A DNA stretch of 64,000 bases, from IMG/VR virus record IMGVR_UViG_2909314774_000001; one strand, written 5' to 3'. Source of the DNA: a virus. Lineage: Duplodnaviria > Heunggongvirae > Uroviricota > Caudoviricetes. The translations under genes were made by a program, and so were the position numbers. The notes beneath the pieces are model-generated. The model saw nothing but the letters and a program-made list of their open reading frames with translations. It did no database searches and had not been told where the DNA came from. Shown here piece after piece: positions 6,174 through 23,932 of the stretch (position 1 is its first letter; every line of letters starts with the position of its first letter).

Positions 6174-6754
6174 TTCATGTGCAGCTTGGCGGCCCTATGG
6201 CCAAACATTTTGGCCGCCACTGGCATCTAAAGGTGCGCAATACAAAACAGGCTCTGGATTTAATTGAGGCCAACAAGCCTGGGTTTAAAGCATGGATGAA
6301 GCGCAATATCAAAACCTATGACCGTTACCACATCCAGATCACCAATAAACAGGGCCACAAGTGGTCTGTTGACGAAAGTGAATATCAGATGATGGGGCAG
6401 TCTGACAACATTGCCAAAATCCGCATTACACCTGTTCCGCGAGGAAGCGGTGGATCTGCTTTTGGGTGGTTTCAGACGGTAGTAGGGGCCGCTTTGTTGG
6501 TTGTATCGGCGGTAGTGATGCCTGCTTTAGCACCTATCGGTTTGTCACTGATGATGGGCGGCATATCACAAATCATATCGCCGCAAGCCACTAACGAAAG
6601 TGTGAGACAGGCAGATAACTCGAACTCTTATTATTTCGACGGCCCTCAAAATACAGAAAACCAGGGCAACCCAGTACAACTTATCTATGGCGAGGAAATT
6701 CTGGTTGGCTCACAGGTTGTGAGTTCTTCAATCACGATTGACCAGCTAATGTAA
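6161..6754 (+). CDS. tail assembly protein I (lambda gpI-like)
   Basis: 197 aa between K and J homologues, GTG start overlapping K stop, hydrophobic C-terminal half as in lambda gpI. Confidence 0.65.
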   Translation: MSELVHVQLGGPMAKHFGRHWHLKVRNTKQALDLIEANKPGFKAWMKRNIKTYDRYHIQITNKQGHKWSVDESEYQMMGQSDNIAKIRITPVPRGSGGSAFGWFQTVVGAALLVVSAVVMPALAPIGLSLMMGGISQIISPQATNESVRQADNSNSYYFDGPQNTENQGNPVQLIYGEEILVGSQVVSSSITIDQLM

Positions 6755-9700
6755 ACAAGGATTTTTTTGAACATGGAACAGTTCAAGAAGAAAAAGTTAC
6801 CGCTGTTTATTGCAGGTGCGGGTGGTAAAAAAAGCAGCAAAAGCTCTAGCCGTACACCGGTTGAAGCCGACGATACCGTAAATTCTCGTGCAATGGCCGC
6901 TATCCTCGATCTTCTTGGGGAAGGTGTAATTGGCGGCTTGGTAAATGGCGCAAGATCTATTTTTGTCGACGATCTGCCGATTGTAAATGAAGACGGTTCC
7001 TCCAACTTCAGCGGAATCACATGGGATTTTCGCGACGGTTCGCAAGACCAGACTCCAATGTCTGGCTTTGATTTCGTTGAAACGCCTAAATCCGTCAATA
7101 TCCAGTTAAAAAAAACACATTATGTAACGGTTTCAATCGATAACGATGAAGCTGATCGGGTTCGTGTCATCATGAAGTTTCCTTCTTTGCGAAGCATAGA
7201 TAAAAAAACTGGTGACACGAACGGTACAACCGTTGAGTACAAGTTCCAGATAGCAAATGGCGACTCAACATTTGTAGATGTGGTCGCAGAAGGTGAAAAA
7301 AGCGTTGGCATTAAGCTAACAGCAAAGAAGACAGGTGTTTATTACCGTAGCTATGAGCTGAAGCTGCCTAAGCCTGGACGCGCGTACAAGGTTCGTGTAG
7401 TCCGTATTACCGATGATAACAGCAGCCAGTATCTCTATAACGATACATGGGTGGACTCAATAGGTGAGATTGTAGATACACCGATGAACTACCCAAACTC
7501 TGTGCTGGTGGGTCTGAAGGTTAATTCTGAGCAGTTTGGTAGCACCATGCCATCTCGTTCGTATTTGGTACGTGGATTAAAAATTCGCGTGCCGTCAAAC
7601 TACAACGAGGCCAGCAACACTTATGATGGTGTATGGGATGGCACTTTTAAGCTGTTGTCTTCTTCAAACCCCGCGTGGATTCTCTTTGATTTGCTTACCA
7701 ATGCTCGATATGGCCTTGGTCAGTATGTGTCGGAATCTATGATTGACCTCGGCCAGCTATACCAGATCGGTCGATATTGTGACGAAGAGGTTGATGATGG
7801 CTTTGGTGGTAAAGAGAAACGCTTTGCAATCAATACGCAGATCACCAGTCGACAGGACGCATACCGATTAATTCAGGATATTGCCGGTGCATTCCGCGGT
7901 ATGGTGTTTTGGGCTGGTGGCATGGTTAACATCATGCAGGATAGCCCATCAGATCCGGTAATGATGTTTACCAACTCTAACGTCAAAGATGGATTGTTTA
8001 CCTATAAAGGTTCTGCGCGTAAAGATCGCCCATCCGTTGCGCTCGTAACCTACAACAACAAGGAGGACGGTTATAAGCAAAACATCGAGTACGTTGAAGA
8101 TCAGGACGCAATGCGCCGTTATGGTGAGCGTAAGACAGAAGTCGTAGCATTTGGCTGTACAAGCCGAGGGCAGGCTCACCGAGTTGGTTTGTGGCTTTTA
8201 TATACCGCCAGAATGGAGTCGGATGTAATTACATTTACTGCCGGCTTAGACGCGTCATTTCTGATGCCTGGTGAAACCGTTCTGATTCAGAACAAATATC
8301 GCGCAGGCAAACGTAACTCAGGTCGAATTGTGGCGTTTACCAAAAACAGCGTCACACTCGATGCGCCGGTGTCGTTAGCCAAAGGCGGCTGCTTTATTCG
8401 AATACTGAATCAGGAAGGCAAAATCGTTGAACGCGATGTTCTTGAAACTGGCGAAAATATAACAAAAGTTACGTTTTCAAAATCCCTGTCTTCGGCTGAA
8501 ACGCCTGTTTTGAACGGCGTCTGGACTATTACAGAACCAGACCTCGAACCTATGCGCGTTCGCATCGTTAACATCGCGCAGGGGGAAACGCCGGGTAGCT
8601 TTGACATCACCGCTGTTGAGAACAATCCGTCTAAATATGAGGCAATCGACAATGGTGCAACGCTGATCCCGCAGAATACGACGGTATTGGACCCAACTTA
8701 CTCCAAGCCATCTAATCTGCAAATCACTGAAGGGACTTATCTCTCAAGCCCGGGCAACCTGTCAGTAAAACTGACTGCAACATGGGAAGGGAAATCTCCA
8801 GAGTATTGGATCAGTTGGCGACGTTCTGATGAAAACAATGTATCGAACTGGCAATCGGCGCGTGTAACCGAAGAGCAATACGAAATCGTTAATGTCGCGG
8901 AGAATGGACGCTACGACTTCCAACTGTATGCGGTTTCATTCAACGGTAAAAAAACAGAAATTATCAGTACCGTTTATCAGGTGCTGGGCACAATGACACC
9001 GCCGGATGCACCAACGTCATTAACGGCCGTTGGAGACTATCGTAATGTGATACTGAATTGGGTTAATCCAGATTCGGTGGACCTTGATCACATTAATGTT
9101 TACGCATCCCAGACCAACAATCTGGATACGGCGAAACTGATCGCAGAGTCTGCAAGCACCACCTTTACACATGCTGGTCTTGGGGATAGCGAAACGTGGT
9201 ATTACTGGGTTCGAGCATCGAACAAGCGAGGTATGTTAAGTCCTCCGAACTCAAACTTGGGTACAGAGGCGACAACTCGCGATGTACTGTCGTTCCTGAC
9301 TGGCAAAATTACATCTTCCGAGCTTGGTCAGGCTCTGCTTGAGGACATCAACAGCAAAGCCTCTCAAGAAGCAGTTGACGAGTTAAATGAGCATATCAAC
9401 CAGAGCGTCGAATCTTTGGAGGGGGCGGTAAACGACGTTAAGGAAGATATAGCTGAATTAGATAAGCAGTTCAGCGATAACCTCGCGGATTTTGAAATAA
9501 AATTCAACGAGCGTAGCGATGCTTTGGAGAACGCACAAACCGAGCTTAAAGGTGAGGTTTCGGCAACGATTGACAAGGTCAATGAAGCGTTTGAAAAAAT
9601 TGATGCTACTGATGCTGCAATTGTTGAAATCGAAAACACCGTATCTGAACACGATAAAGCTCTCGCTAATACAGTCGAGGCAATAAAGGCTGCAAGAGAT

Positions 9701-19861: not shown

Positions 19862-19997
19862 ACCACAAACAGCCAGCGTGTTGTTCTGCGATGGGGCTGA
19901 GCCTATCTATATCAGCAATAATGATGTAATGACTGAAGAAACCGAACGCCAAATCCTTTTTCACAATACGATGGGAGAGAGGGTTTGTGGTTGGTGA
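19812..19997 (+). CDS. o-spanin (Rz1-like outer membrane lipoprotein)
   Basis: Signal peptide MLLPFIVSCMISGC with lipobox ISG-C; overlaps the last ~50 nt of the Rz-like gene out of frame, the classic Rz/Rz1 arrangement. Confidence 0.5.
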   Translation: MLLPFIVSCMISGCVIKPQTASVLFCDGAEPIYISNNDVMTEETERQILFHNTMGERVCGW

Positions 19998-20029
19998 TGT
20001 CGAAGTTCCCCTCAAATGAGGGGAACACA

Positions 20030-20551
20030 TTATTCTTCGAACAATTTTTCGATAGATTTTGTAGGATAGAACAAAGAACGCTCGTTGTTACCAACCAGCT
20101 GGATAAAGCCTAAACTTTTATAAAACGCCTTGGCTTTGTCATTTAACGCCTCAACGAAAAGTCCATGAATGCCTACAGCAAGAGATGCATTGTACACAAC
20201 GCGCATTGCATGTGTTACAAGCATTGAGCCAAATCCTTGACCTTGAAGGGACTTGTCCAAAGCCAGCCTACCCAAAGTAACACTTGGAACATTCCGATAA
20301 GGAACCTTCTTTTGTTTGCTTCTTGAAGGTAAGGACTCCTTTTCAAAACAACTACCTGACAAAGTGTAATATCCTAACACTTTTGGCCTTTCTTCTTGAG
20401 TGCAAAGCACATAAGCACGAAGAATTTTTCCCTCATGCTGCCTTTTTAAGTGGTTGGCTAAAAAGGCGTTTAGTGACTCTTCGCCGCAATCAAAACCGTT
20501 TAGATCATAATCTTTCTCTCCAGAGAAAATCTCTATCGTTGTATTGCTCAC
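20030..20551 (-). CDS. GNAT-family acetyltransferase toxin (TacT/KacT/AtaT-like)
   Basis: 173 aa with GNAT acetyl-CoA binding signature (LALDKSLQGQGFGSMLV); immediately downstream (8-nt gap) of a DUF1778-type RHH antitoxin gene. Confidence 0.75.
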   Translation of the reverse strand: MSNTTIEIFSGEKDYDLNGFDCGEESLNAFLANHLKRQHEGKILRAYVLCTQEERPKVLGYYTLSGSCFEKESLPSRSKQKKVPYRNVPSVTLGRLALDKSLQGQGFGSMLVTHAMRVVYNASLAVGIHGLFVEALNDKAKAFYKSLGFIQLVGNNERSLFYPTKSIEKLFEE

Positions 20552-20558
20552 GAGTAAA

Positions 20559-20828
20559 CTACTCCATGCTTTTCAGACGATCAGCAGCTCGTTTCAGCTT
20601 GTCGTTCGGTGCCGGAGGATTGCTTATAGCGTCCATAACCAGATTCCAGGATTCTTCATTCAGAACTAGTCTACGGTGTTGCTCTATAACTTTCACGGCA
20701 CGTTCAGATGCACTGCTAACCATAAACTGAGTAATGCTCTGGTTAGACATTGCGGCAGCTTCCTCGATGATGCTTTTATCGTCATCGGTTAATCTCAAAT
20801 CGATGCGCTGCTTTTTTAGTGCTGACAT
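20559..20828 (-). CDS. RHH antitoxin (TacA/KacA-like, DUF1778)
   Basis: ~89 aa from MSALKKQRIDLRLTDDDKSIIEEAA (AGGAGG RBS 6 nt upstream); N-terminal ribbon-helix-helix and C-terminal PAPN-type tail typical of antitoxins paired with GNAT toxins. Confidence 0.7.
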   Translation of the reverse strand: MSALKKQRIDLRLTDDDKSIIEEAAAMSNQSITQFMVSSASERAVKVIEQHRRLVLNEESWNLVMDAISNPPAPNDKLKRAADRLKSME

Positions 20829-21146
20829 GTATTCCTCCTGATGGCCGTGATGTAGGAAGGCCATCAATCTCCTCTGTTCAAACTGAGTTTTCGACTCAAA
20901 AATTACTTTAAAAGGCTATAGCCCATTACGTGTGCATTATCAAATTGTGTACGGCATATCACCGTACTTGTAATATAGAGGTCATTGTTACTTTTTTCAA
21001 CAGACAAATACAAGCTATGATTGCCAATTGTTAATCACAACCTACCATTTAACCTTTACACCGCAGCCGTAGGCATTTAGGCTATATCACATATAAGAAA
21101 ACAAGTTGTTTCAGACGATAATTATATACGCAAAGGGAACTCTCCA

Positions 21147-21815
21147 ATGACCAAGATCTTTGTGGTTGGCGGCACAAAGGGCGGGCCTGGCAAATCCACC
21201 GTTGCCCAGCAAATTGCCGTTTGCCTGAAAGTCAAAAAGAAGAAGAAGGTTTATATTACCGATATAGATATTCAGCGCACGACAACGAGCTGGTGTGAAG
21301 ACCGTCGACAGAACGAAGACCTTGAGCTGATTCCTTTTGCATACGTTCAGGATGACATCATTAAGCACCTAAAATCGCTTCAGGGTAGAGCTGAGTTTGT
21401 AGTGGTAGATGCCGGTGGCTTTGACTCCGAAATTCAGCGACAAGCGATGCTGATGGCTGACGTTATCATTATCCCGCTTCGTCCTAAGCGTCGTGATTTG
21501 AAATCTCTGCGTGACATTGATCCTATTATCGACAATGTTCGTAATGTAAACGATAAAGTGAAGGTCCGCGCGGTCATGAACCAGTGCCCGGCTTTGCCAT
21601 CACAAGTGTCTCGCATTCTGGCGGCTAAAGAGATTGTCGAGACGTTTGGCATCGAGTCTGCGCCAGTCAATCTATATAACCGCAACGTCTATGATGATGC
21701 GGAAGAGTCTGGTCGTTCTATCTTTGAAATGACCGGTAGCGAGCGCGACAAAAAGGCGGAAGCCGAGTTTGAAGAATTTGTAGATTATCTGTTGAGTCTG
21801 GAGGAAGAAGAATAA
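21147..21815 (+). CDS. ParA-type partition ATPase (small, deviant Walker A)
   Basis: VVGGTKGGPGKST deviant Walker A (KGGxGKS/T), 222 aa, followed by an overlapping small RHH protein. Confidence 0.8.
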   Translation: MTKIFVVGGTKGGPGKSTVAQQIAVCLKVKKKKKVYITDIDIQRTTTSWCEDRRQNEDLELIPFAYVQDDIIKHLKSLQGRAEFVVVDAGGFDSEIQRQAMLMADVIIIPLRPKRRDLKSLRDIDPIIDNVRNVNDKVKVRAVMNQCPALPSQVSRILAAKEIVETFGIESAPVNLYNRNVYDDAEESGRSIFEMTGSERDKKAEAEFEEFVDYLLSLEEEE

Positions 21816-22174
21816 TGTCCATGAAAATGGGTGACCTAGCAAAGCGCAAAGAGCCTGATGCACCGGCTAAGAACACAACTCCTTTGCGCCAACCAGTCAG
21901 ACCACAGGGACGCCCGACTCGTGGCAAAGAGAAAATTAAAAGCCGCACAATGTCACTGGAGGACGAATACTTCGAACTGCTGGAGATGATGAAGTTCATC
22001 CCTCGCTTCGAGAAATTCACCCGCTCTGATGTGATTCGTGCTGCTATTTTCCATCTTGCGGAGAAGACACCGCAGGAAATCGAGGACATCGTGAAACTTA
22101 ACGAGGCGATCACAGCTGCCGATGTCACGATGCGTACCGATGAAATTAAACGCGAGTTGATGAAGAAAGGGTGA
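21815..22174 (+). CDS. small centromere-binding partition protein (ParG-like RHH)
   Basis: 119 aa, start overlaps ParA stop; unstructured basic N-terminus and C-terminal RHH-like segment (SLEDEYFELLEMM...RSDVIRAAIFHL). Confidence 0.55.
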   Translation: MSMKMGDLAKRKEPDAPAKNTTPLRQPVRPQGRPTRGKEKIKSRTMSLEDEYFELLEMMKFIPRFEKFTRSDVIRAAIFHLAEKTPQEIEDIVKLNEAITAADVTMRTDEIKRELMKKG

Positions 22175-22225: not shown

Positions 22226-23932
22226 ATGGAATCGATAGAAGTATTTTTAAAAAATTTTTTGGACTCAGATCATCGGGTTGCTGTCATAAAAGGAAATTGG
22301 GGAGTAGGTAAAACGCATTATTGGAATAGCTTTTATACTAAACATTCTAAAAAATTAGATTTTAATGCATATTCATATGTTTCTTTGTTTGGAATAAATT
22401 CTATTGGAGACATTAAAAAAGCTCTTTATCATTGTGCCACACCAATTAATGAAAAGAAATATAAAGAACTGATTTTATCTGAAACGGATCGAACTATGAT
22501 TCGTTATAGAAATGGGTTTTGGGGATGGTTGAAATACAACTCCTTGTCAAAATTTTTAATACATTTTGGAAAGAACGATTTTTTTGGGTTCAAAACTGAT
22601 AATCTGCTGTCATCTCTTGAGTATAAATTTGTTAATAATTATTTGGTTTGCATTGATGATATTGAACGAAAAGGTAGTGCGCTAGAAATTAAAGAGATTA
22701 TGGGGGTAATTGATGAGTTGGCAAGAAGAAAAAATTGCAAGGTTGTTCTAATATTAAATGAAGATAACTTACATGAAGAAACTGCACAACAACAGTTTTT
22801 AGAGTATAGAGAAAAAATAATTGATGTGGAAATAAAATACGATCCCACGCCTGAGAAAAACTTAAGAAAAGTTTTTTATGAGACTGACCCTGATTTTCTT
22901 TTGTTAAAAAACCTAGTAAATGATTTAAACATCAAAAACATTAGAATATTAAATAAAATAAAATCATCTCTAGTTATATTTAGAGATGTGCTAAAGTTAG
23001 CAGAGGATAAGGTTAGAGAAAGTTTTATTAATAGATTGGTCTTATTTTCAGTGGTTTACTATTTTGGTGTTCCTAGCGTTGATTATGCTTCATTTAAGGA
23101 GTCAATCAAAAATATACATGCATTCGACTATATGTTAGATGATAAAGATGAAAAGGAAGAAGTTAACTCTGTATATTCATTTGTTAATAGCCTTGATGTT
23201 ATTTATGAACGAGCAGAAAGTGCTTTCGATGATGATATAGATTTTTACCTTAAGAACGGTTATGTTTCTTCTGAAAGCAATATTCTAAATATAATAAAAG
23301 AAAAAAATGAACAATATAGAGATAATAGGGTTTTATGTGAGGTTTATAAAATTTGGGATGTTTTTAGAAACTCTTTTAAAGATAATGAATCAGAGTTTAT
23401 TTTTCAAATTGAGCGCGTAATTAACGATAGTCTGTTGCGTATACCAATTGGACAGTTCGTAGGTTTAATAAATGTCCTAATTAAATTGGATAGAGATTGT
23501 AATAATATTATAGAGGCATATGCAGATGCTTTTGTTAATAAAGAAAATGCGTATGCTACATTTAATTCTTTGCGAGTAGAGATCTTCGGAAATGAAGAAT
23601 TAGGTTTCAGAATTGAAAAAAAATTGAAAGATAGAAATCCAGATGACTATAACTTAGATAAAATTATAAAAAAAATAGCTGGTGGAAGATTTAACCATAG
23701 TGATGTGAATATTCTTAACAGTTTTTCTAAAGATGATTACGTAAACTGGATATTATCCTGTGATCAGGATGCTTTGAATTTAGTAGAAGAGACTATGCTC
23801 AAGTTCAAGGGTATGCAACACCCGACAGACGAACAGAAGAGCATCACTGATAAAGCAATAGAAGCTTTGGAGGAAGTTGCTTCAAAATCAACACTTAATA
23901 AGCTGCGTGTTAATAAAATACTCAATCATTAA
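22226..23932 (+). CDS. KAP-family-like P-loop NTPase in low-GC cargo region
   Basis: Walker A GNWGVGKT at residues ~23-30 and Walker B-like LVCIDDIER ~110 aa downstream (KAP NTPases typically hhhhDDLDR); gene is markedly AT-rich, with Asn/Lys/Ile-rich codon usage unlike its neighbours. Confidence 0.55.
   Translation: MESIEVFLKNFLDSDHRVAVIKGNWGVGKTHYWNSFYTKHSKKLDFNAYSYVSLFGINSIGDIKKALYHCATPINEKKYKELILSETDRTMIRYRNGFWGWLKYNSLSKFLIHFGKNDFFGFKTDNLLSSLEYKFVNNYLVCIDDIERKGSALEIKEIMGVIDELARRKNCKVVLILNEDNLHEETAQQQFLEYREKIIDVEIKYDPTPEKNLRKVFYETDPDFLLLKNLVNDLNIKNIRILNKIKSSLVIFRDVLKLAEDKVRESFINRLVLFSVVYYFGVPSVDYASFKESIKNIHAFDYMLDDKDEKEEVNSVYSFVNSLDVIYERAESAFDDDIDFYLKNGYVSSESNILNIIKEKNEQYRDNRVLCEVYKIWDVFRNSFKDNESEFIFQIERVINDSLLRIPIGQFVGLINVLIKLDRDCNNIIEAYADAFVNKENAYATFNSLRVEIFGNEELGFRIEKKLKDRNPDDYNLDKIIKKIAGGRFNHSDVNILNSFSKDDYVNWILSCDQDALNLVEETMLKFKGMQHPTDEQKSITDKAIEALEEVASKSTLNKLRVNKILNH

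Follow-up and report, generated by a model that had tools for sequence, protein, structure and literature searches.

Introduction

The best described relatives of the gene pair analysed here are type II toxin–antitoxin systems of the TacAT/KacAT/AtaRT class, which join a GNAT acetyltransferase toxin to a ribbon-helix-helix (RHH) antitoxin. The clade A toxins AtaT and KacT acetylate glycyl- and hydrophobic aminoacyl-tRNAs in vivo (PMC9177977). In KacAT the antitoxin blocks both acetyl-CoA binding and the dimerisation of the toxin, toxin and antitoxin assemble into a toxin–antitoxin2–antitoxin2–toxin hexamer, and conditional cooperativity has been described (PMC6698736). The crystal structure of KacAT on DNA (5ZGN) contains the 27-bp duplex AAATGTACGGTTATTAACCGTACATGA, and the KacAT palindrome spans the kacAT transcription start; KacA reads its operator with R8, D10 and R12, and M65 and I68 are among the residues described for neutralisation (PMC6698736). 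Here we examine a pair of this class at positions 20030–21146 of a 64,000-nt stretch of DNA (the window) from a Caudoviricetes virus, IMG/VR record IMGVR_UViG_2909314774_000001. An original prediction, made from the sequence alone, had placed such a pair beside the partition locus of a phage-plasmid; the element is indeed an SSU5-like Escherichia coli phage-plasmid.

We consider it very probable that this locus is a functional type II operon of the KacAT/AtaRT kind, carried as a self-contained cargo cassette. The pair has already been annotated and published in phage Cyrano/pLF82 and is a textbook member of a solved family; the fresh details are limited to a hairpin that adjoins the ribosome-binding site within a long leader and to an operator shared with chromosomal ataRT.

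Toxin and antitoxin belong to the AtaRT/KacAT subgroup

The minus strand of 20030–20867 holds two adjoining open reading frames (Table 1), the antitoxin gene first and the toxin gene second, in the bicistronic layout of the KacAT/AtaRT subgroup; the two tightly coupled minus-strand genes of about 89 and 173 codons in the original prediction are thereby confirmed. The toxin matches several Pfam GNAT acetyltransferase models above their gathering scores. It aligns without gaps over residues 1–172 with AtaT of E. coli O157:H7 (PDB 6GTS, E = 1.4e-79; the AtaT structures 6AJM and 7CHD are matched at E about 1e-79), with a global identity of 69%, and over its full length, again without gaps, with Klebsiella pneumoniae KacT (5ZGN_C, also 5XUN; E = 3.9e-75). 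PDB entries of the TacT and ItaT types are matched at E = 1e-21 or weaker, down to 1e-11. By E-values and identity, rather than by a phylogenetic tree, the toxin is assigned to clade A, close to AtaT and KacT. Its other features are those of the subgroup, namely a length of about 170–180 residues, a GNAT fold, a Q-x-x-G-x-G motif and a catalytic tyrosine; the QGQGFG acetyl-CoA loop (residues 103–108, including G108) and Tyr144 are both kept in the gapless AtaT alignment. We take the catalytic tyrosine to be AtaT Y144, equivalent to KacT Y145, and the weight that we presume for G108 and Y144 comes from the mutant literature on AtaT and KacT.

The antitoxin matches Pfam PF08681 (TacA1, formerly DUF1778) over residues 8–86 with E = 5.7e-26 and 90.7 bits against a cut-off of 21, as a profile search for DUF1778 had been expected to reveal. 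Its length falls within the 88–95 or so residues of the subgroup, with an N-terminal RHH and a TacA1/DUF1778 domain, and it is matched gaplessly and at full length by KacA (5ZGN_A, E = 6.6e-42) and AtaR (6AJM_C, E = 1.3e-40), with global identities of 79% and 75%, respectively. All five KacA residues named above, R8, D10, R12, M65 and I68, are present, and N and K occupy positions 70 and 77, as they do in AtaR. The Pfam matches, together with some 70–80% identity to the solved AtaR–AtaT and KacA–KacT proteins, bear out the assignment to the TacAT/KacAT/AtaRT class.

When the window is compared with another allele (pYY76-1-1, pTAir-3), whose DNA is about 90% identical, the dN/dS ratios are 0.04 for the antitoxin and 0.06–0.07 for the toxin, whose GTG start is retained in that allele; judged by these ratios, both genes are under strong purifying selection. 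Such conservation also bears on whether the GNAT gene could instead encode a housekeeping or metabolic acetyltransferase, or a decayed and inactive toxin, with the upstream gene a mere small regulator. RimI and other GNAT enzymes do resemble the toxin weakly, below threshold. However, the NCBIfam housekeeping equivalogs all fall far below their cut-offs (RimI reaches 27.6 bits against 86.4), the solved toxins are matched at E = 1e-79 with catalytic residues intact, and the operator described below is perfectly conserved. Clustering with housekeeping acetyltransferases, which had been named as grounds for abandoning the assignment, is thus not seen among these models, and we regard a housekeeping enzyme or a dead toxin as extremely improbable.

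Gene starts and spacing

The longest form of the antitoxin frame begins at TTG 20867 and would encode 102 residues, and an ATG at 20864 would give the 101 residues of the Cyrano annotation. We rejected both in favour of the ATG at 20828, because the product then aligns one to one with KacA and AtaR, because a canonical Shine-Dalgarno sequence precedes it and because PGAP calls this start in sister plasmids. The 89-residue protein matches the 88-residue KacA and AtaR residue by residue, and PGAP annotates the identical 270-nt coding sequence in the sister plasmids. In the Cyrano record, CYRAN_27 (positions 6660–6965 of our Cyrano locus, L001) begins at the upstream ATG, the additional codons being equivalent to 20829–20864 of the window.

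The stop codon (TAG) of the antitoxin gene and the GTG of the toxin gene are separated by 7 nt, not the 8 nt first given, and the GTG has a GGAG 10 nt upstream. From the antitoxin ATG to that of parA (21147) the distance is 318 bp; the intergenic region of 279 bp in the original prediction fits the TTG start of the 102-residue form and is inconsistent with the antitoxin of about 89 residues proposed in the same place. Nor could we reproduce a distinction by which the pair, unlike the backbone genes, would avoid a conserved start context: neighbouring backbone genes have ordinary, variable Shine-Dalgarno contexts, and that of the antitoxin is canonical. An antisense frame of 148 codons (20284–20730, plus strand) was rejected as unsupported, lying inside two genes under purifying selection. 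The cassette has a G+C content of 41.9%, compared with 46.1% for the window.

Table 1. Positions of the features of the toxin–antitoxin cassette in the window
Feature	Position	Strand	Remarks
GNAT acetyltransferase toxin gene, KacT/AtaT-type, clade A	20030-20551	minus	173 aa, GTG start
RHH antitoxin gene, KacA/AtaR-type (TacA1/DUF1778)	20559-20828	minus	89 aa, ATG start
Antitoxin Shine-Dalgarno sequence AGGAGG	20834-20839	minus	5 nt ahead of the ATG; direct sequence reading
Leader hairpin, TGATGGCC-N12-GGCCATCA	20839-20866	minus	8-bp perfect inverted repeat, abutting the Shine-Dalgarno sequence
Operator palindrome GTACGG-CATATCA-CCGTAC, predicted site of the antitoxin–toxin complex	20949-20967		unique exact match
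Predicted sigma-70 promoter of the operon	20972-21000	minus	-35 TTGAAA 21000-20995, 17-nt spacer, -10 TATATT 20977-20972
Cargo cassette, about 1.04 kb	~19998-21039		between lysis module and backbone parA promoter region; from alignments with SSU5 and PhiR41_1
G+C-rich hairpin, GTTCCCCTCAAATGAGGGGAAC	20005-20026		terminator-like in a scan; between Rz1 stop and toxin stop

An exact copy of the predicted operator accompanies the intact pair

The inverted repeat GTACGG-N7-CCGTAC of the original prediction is real, although it lies 3 nt further right than the 20946–20964 assigned to it (Table 1). The 64-kb window has a single copy of its exact form, and 100 dinucleotide shuffles have none; when up to two mismatches are allowed, about one match per window is expected by chance, and for this reason we give weight to the exact match alone. 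The repeat shares with the crystallised KacAT operator the half-sites GTACGG/CCGTAC and the 7-bp length of the spacer. Its place on the minus strand is 4 nt downstream of the predicted promoter's -10 box; this promoter is the top-scoring promoter-like site of the region and agrees with the consensus at 10 of 12 positions.

We further compared 17 homologous loci, taken at one genome per species (Leclercia, Hafnia, Enterobacter, Lelliottia, Cedecea, Rahnella and others), whose toxins are 61–72% identical to that of the window. The motif in homologous loci follows a TTGAAA/TATAGT-like promoter and lies upstream of the antitoxin wherever the latter could be located. Exactly one exact copy stands upstream of the antitoxin in all 22 of the pair-carrying loci, and none is found in the three loci that have no intact pair (SSU5, PhiR41_1 and a truncated Dryocola locus). 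The chromosomal ataRT of O157:H7 has TGTACGG-TGACATA-CCGTACA (positions 1456–1474 of that locus, L023). With the half-sites and spacing of the KacAT operator matched and a copy in every pair-carrying locus, the identification of the repeat as the antitoxin operator, proposed at the outset, is a prediction as well supported as sequence analysis allows.

The long leader carries a hairpin at the ribosome-binding site

Between operator and antitoxin gene runs an unusually long 5′ leader of about 137 nt (20829–20968, minus strand), such that operator and ATG are about 140 nt apart, compared with about 41–46 nt in ataRT and several other loci. The 8-bp stem of the leader hairpin (Table 1) is present in both the minimum free energy and the centroid folds. 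In all loci with the operator at least 87 nt upstream, a hairpin either overlaps the Shine-Dalgarno sequence or comes to an end no more than a few nucleotides from it, and the long-leader homologues (L005–L008, L012–L015 and L024) have it at the same position with different stem sequences: GACCGCCC/GGGTGGTC in Enterobacter soli, Lelliottia and Huaxiibacter, CTGACCGTTCT/AGAGTGGTCAG in another E. coli plasmid, and CCTGCTG/CGGCAGG in Cedecea and Enterobacter. Short-leader loci, chromosomal ataRT included, have no leader hairpin. Compensatory evidence for the stem is limited to some two double changes plus an inserted pair and a G-U change, and the fold z-scores are modest, at -1 to -2.2 for the hairpin in single sequences and -0.36 for the whole leader. 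An Rfam scan of the leader and intergenic region by E-value returned no family and only sub-threshold chance hits, these being group-II-D1D4-3 at 19915–19989 (23.3 bits, the gathering score being 32) and one model each for a miRNA and a snoRNA. RNAalifold proposed that the hairpin loop (CCUUCC) pairs with the Shine-Dalgarno sequence; we set this pairing aside because it is not conserved in L008 and L012.

The cassette as variable cargo of SSU5-like phage-plasmids

Homology to SSU5 and PhiR41_1, which have no such pair, stops just past the Rz1 stop codon and resumes at about 21040, 107 bp of conserved backbone before the parA ATG. Given this boundary of the cassette at about 21039, the region between the pair and parA is composed of the promoter, operator and leader of the cassette followed by the control region of the backbone parA gene. 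The segment 21040–21146 is almost invariant across SSU5, PhiR41_1 and E. coli plasmids (e.g. CCGCAGCCGTAGGCATTTAGGCTATATCACATATAAG) and probably serves as promoter or operator of parA, or else as a centromere-like site. Between Rz1 and the parA promoter lies a hotspot for cargo: where the window has about 19998–21039, SSU5 (L002, 3612–5040) and PhiR41_1 (L025, 2096–3560) have two plus-strand genes of about 132–140 and 233–258 codons, neither with a Pfam match, followed by a terminator of their own. At the other end of the cassette, the G+C-rich hairpin of Table 1 falls inside cassette-specific sequence, common to pYY76-1-1 and not to SSU5 or PhiR41_1, and likely serves as a terminator for the convergent lysis and toxin–antitoxin transcripts.

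Over 1.3 kb around the pair, the window shows 100% identity with Escherichia phage Cyrano (OV696614), with pLF82 of E. coli LF82 (NC_011917) and with many other E. coli plasmids of about 110 kb. In Cyrano the pair, annotated as an acetyltransferase-type toxin named KacT (CYRAN_26) and a ‘putative antitoxin’ (CYRAN_27), sits between the holin–endolysin–Rz–Rz1 lysis module and parA. Because the window departs from Cyrano downstream of parAB, where NZ_CP031136 and MF554642 are closest, it represents a sister SSU5-like phage-plasmid and not Cyrano itself. More widely, the leader-plus-promoter sequence occurs in 144 PLSDB plasmids, 139 of them from Escherichia, three from Shigella, one from Enterobacter and one uncultured, and the three that we inspected all have an SSU5-like backbone with the cassette at the same site by parA, two of them as cointegrates. 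In plasmid ESBL242 (NZ_KP792123; L021, 4184–4982) the toxin gene differs from that of the window at only 3 nt, whereas its leader and its antitoxin gene (different at 15 of 264 nt) are those of the other, about 90%-identical allele, a mosaic that suggests recombination between alleles inside the cassette.

The pair is transcribed in the lysogenic state: in the Cyrano study, both genes are among the morons expressed in LF82 lysogens, at 35 and 60 times the local prophage background (PMC9928086). The presence of an identical, transcribed pair on pLF82/Cyrano in a macrophage-adapted strain, together with the link of TacT-type toxins to non-growing Salmonella cells in macrophages (PMC11205521), raises the question of whether the main effect of the pair is to arrest the growth of the host, such as the adherent-invasive E. 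coli LF82, and to favour its persistence under antibiotics or in macrophages, with maintenance of the element secondary. We think this quite unlikely, since E. coli plasmids from dogs, pigs, poultry, soil and river water carry the cassette and no connection with an intracellular lifestyle is apparent, and the Cyrano study holds nothing that ties the pair to survival in macrophages.

Downstream of parA lie two further genes of interest. A 119-codon gene (21815–22174, plus strand) overlaps the parA stop codon (ATGA), and its Cyrano homologue is annotated as a ‘RelE/ParE putative toxin’, a label that finds no support in Pfam, the PDB or PHROG 5111, itself a family of unknown function. The sole hint is a weak match to the RHH-type NCBIfam model aCcr1 (E = 2e-4), and by its position the product is more likely a small centromere-binding partner of ParA. 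Just downstream of parAB, 22226–23932 (plus strand) encodes a 568-residue KAP-family P-loop NTPase (PHROG 4740) that matches the PADLOC candidate defence family PDC-S49 (E = 1.6e-21); Cyrano has a different gene, CYRAN_30, in its place, and the slot looks like a second variable cargo site, possibly with a defence gene.

Type II toxin–antitoxin pairs often serve as defence systems. A cargo pair expressed in lysogeny from a variable slot of a temperate element, and near this candidate defence gene, might likewise act mainly in abortive infection or superinfection exclusion, shut-off of host transcription upon infection depleting a labile antitoxin and so freeing the toxin. However, neither protein matched a PADLOC-DB 2.0 family at E <= 0.01, no paper on phage defence by a GNAT/DUF1778 pair came out of a literature search, and the location beside the partition locus, along with the plasmid-stabilising precedent of GmvAT discussed below, favours maintenance. 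We therefore judge a principal role in defence to be unlikely, and the abortive infection suggested by the original prediction finds no support in either search.

A chromosomal relative with the same operator

Among 5426 complete E. coli genomes, chromosomal ataRT is present on 1625 chromosomes (~30%), and 70 genomes have two homologues. The phage-plasmid pair and the ataRT of O157:H7 have the same operator half-sites and the same DNA-reading residues. Given this identity of operators and beta-strand residues, the phage-plasmid and host promoters could well be cross-repressed, and resident AtaR might even counteract the toxin that comes in, an anti-addiction effect that would influence in which hosts the phage-plasmid can persist. 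In addition, copies of kacAT/ataRT on mobile elements may have a post-transcriptional layer, in which the leader hairpin would tune antitoxin translation or mRNA stability. Taken jointly, we put forward these two ideas, cross-talk with ataRT and control through the leader, as tentative possibilities.

Discussion

Combining protein and DNA comparisons with the solved structures of the family, we arrive at a model in which the predicted sigma-70 promoter (21000–20972) would drive a bicistronic antitoxin–toxin mRNA. By analogy with its relatives, the toxin would use acetyl-CoA to acetylate the alpha-amino group of charged tRNAs and thereby block translation, and the C-terminal part of the antitoxin would wrap the toxin so as to block its acetyl-CoA site and its dimerisation. 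A toxin–antitoxin2–antitoxin2–toxin hexamer would then set two RHH dimers on the two GTACGG half-sites at 20949–20967 and, positioned just downstream of the -10 box, would repress the operon, conditional cooperativity being probable. What we infer in this model is the toxicity of the toxin, its tRNA targets, its neutralisation, the repression of the operon and the role in addiction; for neutralisation in a hexamer, the analogy draws on 69–79% identity to solved complexes.

As to what such a module does for its carrier, the GNAT/RHH pair GmvAT of Shigella reportedly stabilises the virulence plasmid pINV by post-segregational killing (attributed to McVicker and Tang, 2016). Because the pair described here adjoins parA on a low-copy phage-plasmid, and because of the GmvAT precedent, we favour addiction: by this analogy, post-segregational killing that stabilises the element beside parA is the likeliest role, one to which we lean with moderate confidence.

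Several observations weigh against the model. Many SSU5-like phage-plasmids, including SSU5 and PhiR41_1, do without the cassette, which is therefore dispensable for their maintenance; parA is already present on the element, as is a HicAB pair in Cyrano. In about 30% of complete E. coli genomes there is a chromosomal ataRT whose operator is the same and whose antitoxin is 75% identical, and in hosts that carry it this could blunt addiction. The standard model does not account for a leader of about 137 nt that has a hairpin at the ribosome-binding site, and we found no experiment on this particular variant, whether for toxicity, for neutralisation, for DNA binding or for plasmid stability.

With the chemistry, structures, operator and regulation of the family already solved, the locus has little importance beyond its correct annotation. 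For that annotation, the start of the antitoxin should be set at the ATG of the 89-residue form, at 20828, in place of the 101-residue start in the Cyrano record, and the operator and promoter of the pair can now be placed precisely. The recognition of a 1-kb cargo cassette in a variable slot also helps the comparison of SSU5-like phage-plasmids with one another. Should cross-talk with ataRT or an effect of the leader hairpin prove true, it would add a modest point on how addiction modules of phage-plasmids relate to paralogues in their hosts.

Set beside the known systems, the pair resembles GmvAT in being a GNAT/RHH module on a large low-copy plasmid, a functional analogy for addiction; pINV is a plasmid and not a phage-plasmid, and the two are likened by function, not by sequence. 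With TacAT1–3 of Salmonella and ItaRT and AtaT2 of E. coli it shares the two-domain architecture and aminoacyl-tRNA acetylation (PDB E-values of 1e-21 to 1e-11), but these systems are much more distant, belonging to other clades with narrow Gly or Ile/Leu specificity (PMC9177977).

KacAT of K. pneumoniae HS11286 (5ZGN, 5XUN) is far closer, with the same antitoxin-then-toxin operon, a 79%-identical antitoxin that keeps R8, D10 and R12, and the half-sites GTACGG/CCGTAC around a 7-bp spacer next to the promoter. Contrasting with KacAT, which is chromosomal in Klebsiella, the copy in the window is cargo of a phage-plasmid; the operator spacer is CATATCA where KacAT has TTATTAA, positions 70 and 77 of the antitoxin are N and K where KacA has Q and R, and the toxin starts with GTG behind a leader of about 137 nt with its hairpin at the ribosome-binding site. 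The AtaRT system of E. coli O157:H7 (6GTS, 6AJM, 7CHD) matches the toxin at 69% identity without gaps over 1–172, including G108 and Y144, and the antitoxin at 75%, with N70 and K77 in common and the same TGTACGG-N7-CCGTACA operator. In contrast to the phage-plasmid pair, ataRT is chromosomal, between livJ and panM, and has a short leader (about 40 nt) without the hairpin; at the DNA level the two are 65.9% identical.

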